DNA of 64,000 bases from Escherichia coli (GTDB lineage Bacteria; Pseudomonadota; Gammaproteobacteria; Enterobacterales; Enterobacteriaceae), in the NCBI RefSeq assembly GCF_003334305.1, contig NZ_QOWS01000004.1; one strand, written 5' to 3'. Below the pieces are notes generated by a model. It was not told the origin of the DNA. It made no database searches and saw only the letters and a list, made by a program, of their open reading frames with translations. Every line of letters starts with the position of its first letter. Within the stretch, counting starts at the first letter, position 1. The translations under genes were made by a program, and so were the position numbers. Shown here piece after piece: positions 21,811 through 22,950 of the stretch.

Positions 21811-22950
21811 TTATCGCTGCGGCAAATAACGCAGCGGGTTTACGGATTTCCCCTTGTAACGAATTTCAAAATGCAAGCGTGTTGAACTGGTTCCGGTGCT
21901 ACCCATGGTTGCTATTTTTTGCCCCGCCTTCACTTCTTGTTGTTCCCGGACCAGCATTGTGTCGTTATGGGCGTAGGCACTCAGGTAATCATCATTATGT
22001 TTGATGATAATCAGATTACCGTAGCCGCGCAGCGCGTTACCGGCATAAACAACGCGGCCATCTGCGGTCGCGATAATTGCCTGTCCTTTGCTGCCTGCGA
22101 TATCAATCCCCTTGTTGCCCCCCTCAGAAGCGCCAAAGGTTTCGATCACTTTGCCCTCAGTCGGCCAGCGCCAGGTGGAGATAGGCGTACTGGTTGATGT
22201 ACTGCTGACAGTTGGCTCGGTTGTGCTTGCTGTTGGTACCGTTACAGGCGCTGTGACCGTGGTCGCAGCTGGCTTGTTGTTCGGCAACATTTTGTTAGCA
22301 CTCTGTTCACCCGAAGATTCAGAATACGTAATTGTCGGTTGCGACGCAACAGCAACGGTGGAATTTTGTGCAGGCTTGATCACAACTCCTTGCTCTGCTG
22401 CGTCGGCCTGGGTAATGGCATTTCCGCCAGTGATTGGCGTACCGGAAGCATTACCCACCTGCAAGGTCTGACCAACGTTCAGCGCGTATGGTGCCTGAAT
22501 ATTGTTGCGCTGAGCAAGGTCACGGAAATCGTTGCCAGTAATCCAGGCGATATAGAAAAGTGTGTCGCCTTTTTTCACGGTATAGGTACTGCCGCTATAA
22601 CTGCCTTTCGGAATGTTCCCATACTGACGGTTATAGACGATGCGTCCGTTTTCCATCTGTACCGGCTGCTGAGCTACTGGCTGCACTGGCTGGATTTGCG
22701 GTTGTTGAGTAGCCTGAATTTGTGGCTGCTGTACCGGCTGAATTTGCGGTTGCTGGGCTGTAGACGTCGTCCCCATTTTCGGCGGCGGCGTAATCAACAT
22801 ACCAGAATTGGTATTTGCAGGCGCATTGCCATTAACAGAGCTGACCGGTGCCGGTGGATTTGAAGTGTCAGAACAGCCTGCCAGCCATAGCGAAACCAGT
22901 GACAAAGCCGCAATGCGGCGAACGGTGAATTTTGGGCTTCCCGCGCTCAT
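21811..22950 (-). CDS. nlpD: Murein hydrolase activator lipoprotein NlpD (LysM + M23 peptidase domains)
   Basis: 379 aa; lipobox LAGC; Gln/Pro-rich repeat; carries the rpoS upstream region. Confidence 0.93.

Follow-up and report, generated by a model that had tools for sequence, protein, structure and literature searches.

The Gln/Pro-rich stretch examined here is a real repeat array: residues 66–89 of NlpD are encoded by three imperfect units of 24 nt each, at 22684–22755 on the minus strand of the window (the whole stretch of Escherichia coli DNA that was analysed, 64,000 nt in length). It is the octapeptide repeat, rich in Gln and Pro, that is known from Escherichia NlpD; its length variants would most probably arise by slippage or short-homology indels and amount to near-neutral changes of a spacer that leave rpoS unaffected. 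The repeat itself, real but ordinary, has been known since 1994, when it was named in the title of the nlpD discovery paper (Ichikawa et al. 1994, cited in PMC2736372); going by that title, the gene, the region and the repeat are the same, and the element itself is no different. The addition made here is small, and consists of allele counts over 5,426 genomes, the microhomology at the indel junctions and the copy numbers at the species level. The gene, the ends of the tether that holds the array and the neighbouring rpoS gene are located as follows.

21811..22950, minus strand: nlpD coding sequence, 379 aa, murein hydrolase activator, outer-membrane lipoprotein
22873..22875, minus strand: lipobox Cys26 codon (LWLAGC), from the translation; lipid-anchor end of the tether
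22456..22584, minus strand: LysM domain, aa 123–165 (Pfam, E 4e-12); peptidoglycan-binding end of the tether
20756..21748, minus strand: rpoS coding sequence, 330 aa (MSQNTLKV...), annotated with 993 nt; ATG at 21748
~22315, minus strand: main rpoS transcription start, approximate; literature position (PMC10948607) on window coordinates

The flagged stretch, 22650–22755 on the minus strand, is in frame with the 379-aa open reading frame at 21811..22950. The identification of this gene as nlpD, proposed in a sequence-only reading of the window, is supported by the annotation, by the LysM and Peptidase_M23 domains and by the pcm-nlpD-rpoS context. The window protein is 100% identical to E. coli NlpD database entries, and its Peptidase_M23 (LytM) domain occupies residues 279–372 (Pfam, E 5e-33). 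The gene order surE-pcm-nlpD-rpoS, read from the open reading frames of the window, is annotated identically in 20 E. coli genomes, and an nlpD annotation is present in 5,414 of the 5,426 complete E. coli genomes. Cys26 is invariant in an alignment of 32 relatives, the lipoprotein signal having been called by motif reading. The same reading had placed the repeat in the NlpD linker, which is correct and can be stated more precisely: the array sits in the N-terminal tether from Cys26 to LysM, not in the linker between LysM and LytM.

NlpD comprises a signal sequence, an N-terminal linker, LysM, a second linker and a dLytM domain, and both linkers are unstructured according to DISOPRED prediction (Tsang et al. 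2017, PMC5533458). In the same study, NlpD(1-115)-mCherry displayed a weak midcell enrichment, and a possible regulation of NlpD by how far it lies from the peptidoglycan layer was put forward. The LytM active site is degenerate, with the catalytic metal ligands missing, and AmiC is activated (PMC5533458). No solved structure in the PDB covers NlpD residues 1–229. An AlphaFold2 model built from a 32-sequence alignment gave pLDDT values of 29–40 over residues 1–115, with the known LytM fold equally low (mean 35.7); the model is poor throughout, LytM fold included, and was rejected as evidence of disorder. None of the Yersinia NlpD proteins has the Pro/Gln-rich repeat region (Tidhar et al. 2009, PMC2736372), and the repeat is therefore dispensable for the core function of the family.

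Residue numbers for NlpD vary between sources because the annotated starts differ. The RefSeq/PGAP start is 15 codons shorter (1095 nt, 364 aa; start at ~22905 versus 22950), the 379-aa form being that of the experimental literature and of the window open reading frame; in one strain nlpD is annotated as still shorter, at 1041 nt, where an allele lacking 48 nt would measure 1047. Eight codons upstream of the repeat lies a PPP motif (ITPPPK; Pro55–Pro57, window 22780–22788, minus strand) that is nearly invariant in relatives. This motif has served as a model for weak, context-dependent ribosome stalling relieved by EF-P, and Gln66-67, the first codons of the repeat, were used to trap ribosomes (Starosta et al. 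2014, PMC4176338).

The array and the short direct repeats that it contains are the following.

22732..22755, minus strand: repeat unit 1, CAGCAACCGCAAATTCAGCCGGTA = QQPQIQPV, aa 66–73
22708..22731, minus strand: repeat unit 2, CAGCAGCCACAAATTCAGGCTACT = QQPQIQAT, aa 74–81
22684..22707, minus strand: repeat unit 3, CAACAACCGCAAATCCAGCCAGTG = QQPQIQPV, aa 82–89
22657..22683, minus strand: degenerate tail QPV-AQQPV-Q, a decayed fourth unit, aa 90–98; 14/24 nt match unit 1
22675..22692, minus strand: 9-nt mini-repeat CAGCCAGTG-CAGCCAGTA (QPV-QPV), substrate of the -9 and +9 alleles
22742..22752, minus strand: 11-nt CAACCGCAAAT in unit 1, junction of most -48 (one-copy) alleles
22694..22704, minus strand: 11-nt CAACCGCAAAT in unit 3, exact partner of the unit 1 copy
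22729..22740, minus strand: first copy of the exact 12-nt direct repeat CAGCCGGTACAG, formed by the end of unit 1 and CAG, bounding the -72 and +72 alleles
22657..22668, minus strand: second copy of the exact 12-nt direct repeat CAGCCGGTACAG, at the tail end, bounding the -72 and +72 alleles

Pairs of units are identical at 17/24, 20/24 and 15/24 nucleotides (62–83%) and at 6/8, 8/8 and 6/8 residues. Between units 1 and 3 the peptide is unchanged, the 4 differing nucleotides all being at third codon positions; a 9-nt exact repeat, CAAATTCAG, is common to units 1 and 2. Tandem Repeats Finder reported no array here, even at a minimum score of 30, because the units are too diverged; a gap-free repeat finder recovered 3 copies at 24-nt spacing. 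The Q/P-rich core contains 41% Gln and 18% Pro, a composition that was preserved in the shuffled controls: the observed lag-8 match count was reached in 3 of 2000 composition-matched shuffles of this core, and a 6-mer occurring three times at equal spacing in none of 100,000. The array is thus more than chance, as is independently confirmed by other strains and species that show indels of whole units and perfect duplications. The duplication of the +72 allele and the deletion of the -72 allele take in the tail (aa 90–98) as well as entire units. The three imperfect coding repeats had been recognised from the sequence, with a 27-aa peptide that proves exact and spans 22675–22755; of the coordinates given with it, which named no strand, the upper limit (22755) is exact and the lower limit (22650) is about 25 nt too generous.

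Whole-gene BLAST conceals length variation, since every sampled nlpD gave a span of 1140 nt. With a 112-nt query carrying short flanks, 52 genomes fell below 80% coverage, a count that does not correspond one-to-one to alleles. The weakest match of this set, OkiPb01695, carries an in-frame 48-nt deletion that leaves one unit, with its junction in the 11-nt CAACCGCAAAT common to units 1 and 3. The census of the 5,426 complete E. coli genomes was, accordingly, based on junction-specific synthetic allele queries, with an E-value too strict for half-matches to the wild type. The alleles detected were as follows.

-48 nt (1 unit): 61 genomes; the 60 matches listed are all single, gap-free and 84 nt long
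-72 nt, between the 12-nt repeats CAGCCGGTACAG: 2 genomes, perfect match (172/172)
-9 nt, one QPV lost: 7 genomes, perfect match (109/109)
+9 nt, an extra QPV: 4 genomes

Synthetic queries for the -24 nt (2-unit), the +24 nt (4-unit) and the +72 nt alleles each matched 0 of the 5,426 complete genomes. In-frame variants thus total about 74 of 5,426 genomes (~1.4%), a figure that may be incomplete because about 8 of the 19 genomes in the 90–95% identity band of the 112-nt query are unexplained by the alleles tested; the 3-unit form accounts for ~98.6%. A protein search revealed the +72 allele in one E. coli assembly, a third-party draft, as a perfect 72-nt duplication reciprocal to the -72 deletion. 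A 363-aa protein cluster with 191 member sequences carries the -48 allele, which is also common to an O157:H7 group that includes TW14359, EC4115, SS17 and SS52; at least 11 of the -48 genomes are labelled O157:H7.

The translations of the fetched loci confirm each allele. Every indel seen is a multiple of 3 nt (9, 48 or 72) and leaves the NlpD open reading frame intact, and each has its endpoints in one of the longest exact direct repeats that the array contains (7–12 nt; 12, 11, 8 and 7 nt). The queries for the -72, -9 and +9 alleles had been designed from the direct repeats beforehand, and all three alleles were then found. The -24 allele is absent though CAAATTCAG predicts one, and the length of the microhomology alone does not, therefore, explain the allele spectrum. 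Comparison of repeat number across strains, by which the earlier expectation of length polymorphism could be judged, shows that the number is not invariant. The expectation holds insofar as variation recurs at short direct repeats; it needs qualification as regards frequency: variants are rare, and the imperfect units are a poor substrate for slippage.

The occurrence of the -48 deletion on different backgrounds was analyzed by comparing surE-pcm-nlpD-rpoS of the window with that of 12 variant loci and 8 wild-type loci, over ~2,765 columns free of gaps. TW14359 (O157:H7), which carries the deletion, differs by 1 SNP from the wild-type O157 strain ATCC 43894 and by 1 SNP from O55:H7. Two further carriers, ECCWS199 and P276M, show 0 SNPs relative to wild-type ATCC 8739; PK8566 shows 0 SNPs relative to 13P460A, a carrier of the +9 allele, and PEC145 lies 2–3 SNPs from K-12-type haplotypes. 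The backgrounds bearing the deletion are 9–25 SNPs apart. In PEC145 the breakpoint is at GTGCAGC and unit 1 is intact; the other -48 loci break at CAACCGCAAAT. Because at least five SNP backgrounds and two breakpoints are represented, the allele appears to have arisen repeatedly, and the simplest reading of these haplotypes is that of at least five independent -48 deletions. Recombination of short tracts could have moved the allele between backgrounds in place of a fresh deletion; in at least some cases this is countered by the second breakpoint and by backgrounds that match the wild type on both sides. The nlpD haplotype of the window strain itself is 19 SNPs away from the K-12-type locus. 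The K-12-type strain E. coli O16:H48 PG20180061 has an rpoS that contains an internal stop and is annotated as a pseudogene, and TW14359 has an RpoS protein accession that differs from that of the other strains. Polymorphism of rpoS is well known, and these two strains are examples of it adjoining nlpD variants.

Outside E. coli, the type strain of E. albertii carries 4 units. A protein search retrieved a 405-aa protein with 7 units from a genome that shares 99.5% identity with this type strain; the allele consists of a perfect 72-nt duplication of units 1–3 plus a 15-nt deletion of the tail between CAGCCTGT repeats. One genome per species was then scanned with a degenerate DNA pattern for a pair of adjacent QQPQIQ units. 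Eight genomes matched, every match lying in nlpD: 3 units were present in E. coli, E. whittamii and two further Escherichia species, 4 in E. albertii, and 2 plus a degenerate third in three Cedecea-like genomes. Citrobacter, Salmonella, Kosakonia, Enterobacter, Lelliottia and others contain degenerate Q/P-rich sequence only. Despite this degeneration outside Escherichia, the distance from Cys26 to LysM is 88–99 aa in 110 of 120 relatives, which hints at selection on the length of the tether rather than on its sequence. Kosakonia cowanii and its relatives contain, at the same position of the tether, 3-residue VQP/QPV runs of 4–6 copies and no octapeptides, and the run counts differ between close Kosakonia relatives; the same tether thus yields different short repeats across genera.

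Taken together, the array is a three-unit, in-frame, minisatellite-like coding sequence in the predicted-disordered tether joining the Cys26 lipid anchor to LysM. Its indels would arise by replication slippage or by short-homology recombination between direct repeats, as suggested by the microhomology at the junctions alone, and the synonymous divergence between units would keep their rate low. Stabilising selection on tether length may hold the 3-unit form at its high frequency in E. coli. The rare variants are assumed to be neutral or nearly neutral changes in spacer length; against this assumption stands the fixation of one allele in an O157:H7 sublineage.

It is conceivable, if unlikely, that repeat number is functionally tuned, setting the reach of NlpD or binding a partner, and that the recurrent loss of 16 residues is an adaptation of certain lineages, such as O157:H7 TW14359/EC4115, rather than neutral. 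The recurrence of -48 on several backgrounds and its presence throughout the O157:H7 group would fit such tuning, as would the conservation of tether length across genera, the preservation of one peptide in units 1 and 3 in the face of four synonymous differences, suggestive of peptide-level selection, and the midcell enrichment of NlpD(1-115)-mCherry together with the proposed regulation by distance (Tsang et al., PMC5533458). On the other hand, the variants make up only the ~1.4% of genomes given above, and a mutational bias toward the longest direct repeats already predicts their recurrence. Moreover, Yersinia NlpD functions without the repeat region (PMC2736372), other genera have only degenerate sequence in the tether, and a literature search on in-frame nlpD deletion in O157 returned no phenotype and nothing relevant. 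A more specific proposal appears quite improbable to us: that the octapeptide copy number determines how far NlpD physically extends between the outer membrane and the septal wall, and that the 16-residue loss seen repeatedly, and fixed in the O157:H7 TW14359/EC4115 group, is adaptive, through the timing of amidase activation or envelope properties, and is made on demand by a mutational hotspot. A sequencing or assembly origin of the length variants, by collapse or expansion of the repeat, is scarcely credible. Repeat arrays can be mis-assembled, and the +72 allele is known from a single third-party draft, but the whole array is shorter than 100 nt and falls within a single read, and collapse is unlikely between units that are only 62–83% identical. 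Furthermore, the -48 allele recurs in its 61 complete genomes from many laboratories and platforms, the coherent O157:H7 group among them, and in the 191 member sequences of the 363-aa cluster.

That repeat indels modulate the expression of rpoS, the repeat DNA being part of its upstream region, is very improbable. The main rpoS promoter is located inside nlpD, its start site preceding the rpoS start codon by 567 nt, and a promoter upstream of nlpD gives rise to a low-level bicistronic nlpD-rpoS mRNA, the internal promoter being the more important (2024 review, PMC10948607). A promoter scan of 21700–23150 reported no sigma-70-like site at threshold, and the position of the rpoS promoter rests, for this reason, on the literature; a TTGCGT-17 nt-TATTCT arrangement, read by eye just upstream of ~22315, is a plausible candidate. 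The repeat is 936–1007 nt upstream of the rpoS ATG and 369–440 nt upstream of the main start site, and only the minor bicistronic mRNA therefore contains it. The operon structure and this transcript (PMC10948607), together with reported effects of nlpD-disrupting insertions on rpoS expression (PMC12870851), speak for a modulation. Yet the IS insertions of the latter study lie downstream of the internal promoter and are not repeat changes, the main stress-responsive promoter starts transcription downstream of the repeat, the bicistronic transcript is low-level, and no translational polarity is expected from indels of 9, 48 or 72 nt that remain in frame. The earlier assignment of the repeat to the rpoS upstream leader has to be withdrawn for the main transcript, since the repeat lies beyond the 5' end of the main leader by the distance given above. 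The accompanying suggestion that indels could affect both genes mostly fails as well: because the repeat is upstream of the main promoter and the frame is kept, its indels should, by inference, not affect rpoS.

Downstream of rpoS, the window contains a flavoprotein gene (19488–20081, minus strand) and a MarR-family regulator (20228–20635, plus strand). In two related loci, a UbiD-like gene follows the MarR-family regulator and the flavoprotein. We take this segment of the window to be the variable rpoS-mutS segment that differs from K-12.

The array resembles in-frame coding minisatellites (VNTR-like) in the disordered linkers of envelope proteins. It is tandem with a period divisible by 3, it changes length by whole units or at short direct repeats (1, 3, 4 and 7 units occur), and it lies within a spacer of low complexity that separates an anchor from a folded domain. 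Unlike classical VNTR loci, its units have diverged at synonymous sites, it is negative by Tandem Repeats Finder, and it is far less dynamic, with a polymorphism of 1.4%; the NlpD repeat would be a poor typing marker. With the phase-variable contingency loci of simple sequence it shares only the recurrence of indels from short direct repeats. In contrast to these loci, its units measure 24 nt (or 9 nt) and are imperfect, mutation is infrequent, and there is neither frameshift switching nor on/off expression. The rpoS 5' leader (567 nt, target of DsrA, RprA and ArcZ) is similarly situated inside or beside the nlpD coding sequence on the same strand, but the repeat is upstream of the leader start, outside the small-RNA target, and is no part of it; this stretch should, as a correction, no longer be assigned to the leader.

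The locus offers a small, clean example of how an imperfect coding repeat behaves across a large sampled population: three units are close to fixation, and there is a handful of recurrent in-frame indels, most of them predictable from the longest exact direct repeats. One allele, -48, marks an O157:H7 sublineage. The natural alleles with 1, 3, 4 and 7 units would be ready reagents for testing the role of tether length in the regulation of NlpD.

A few genomes depart from the usual nlpD locus altogether. Coverage of nlpD does not reach 80% in 12 of the 5,426 genomes, and in the complete genome of E. coli O55:H7 DEC5A (NZ_CP038394.1) the gene has no match other than a 49-nt, chance-like one in flhA; the low-coverage genomes suggest rare loss or disruption of nlpD. 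In addition, and with regard to window 19488–21784, some database proteins (550–560 aa) consist of the N-terminal part of NlpD fused to a UbiD-like decarboxylase, and in another (403 aa) this part is fused to sigma-70 region 4. The NlpD portion of these proteins comprises 81–85% of the query at 99–100% identity, which suggests natural deletions that removed or truncated rpoS and joined nlpD to downstream genes.
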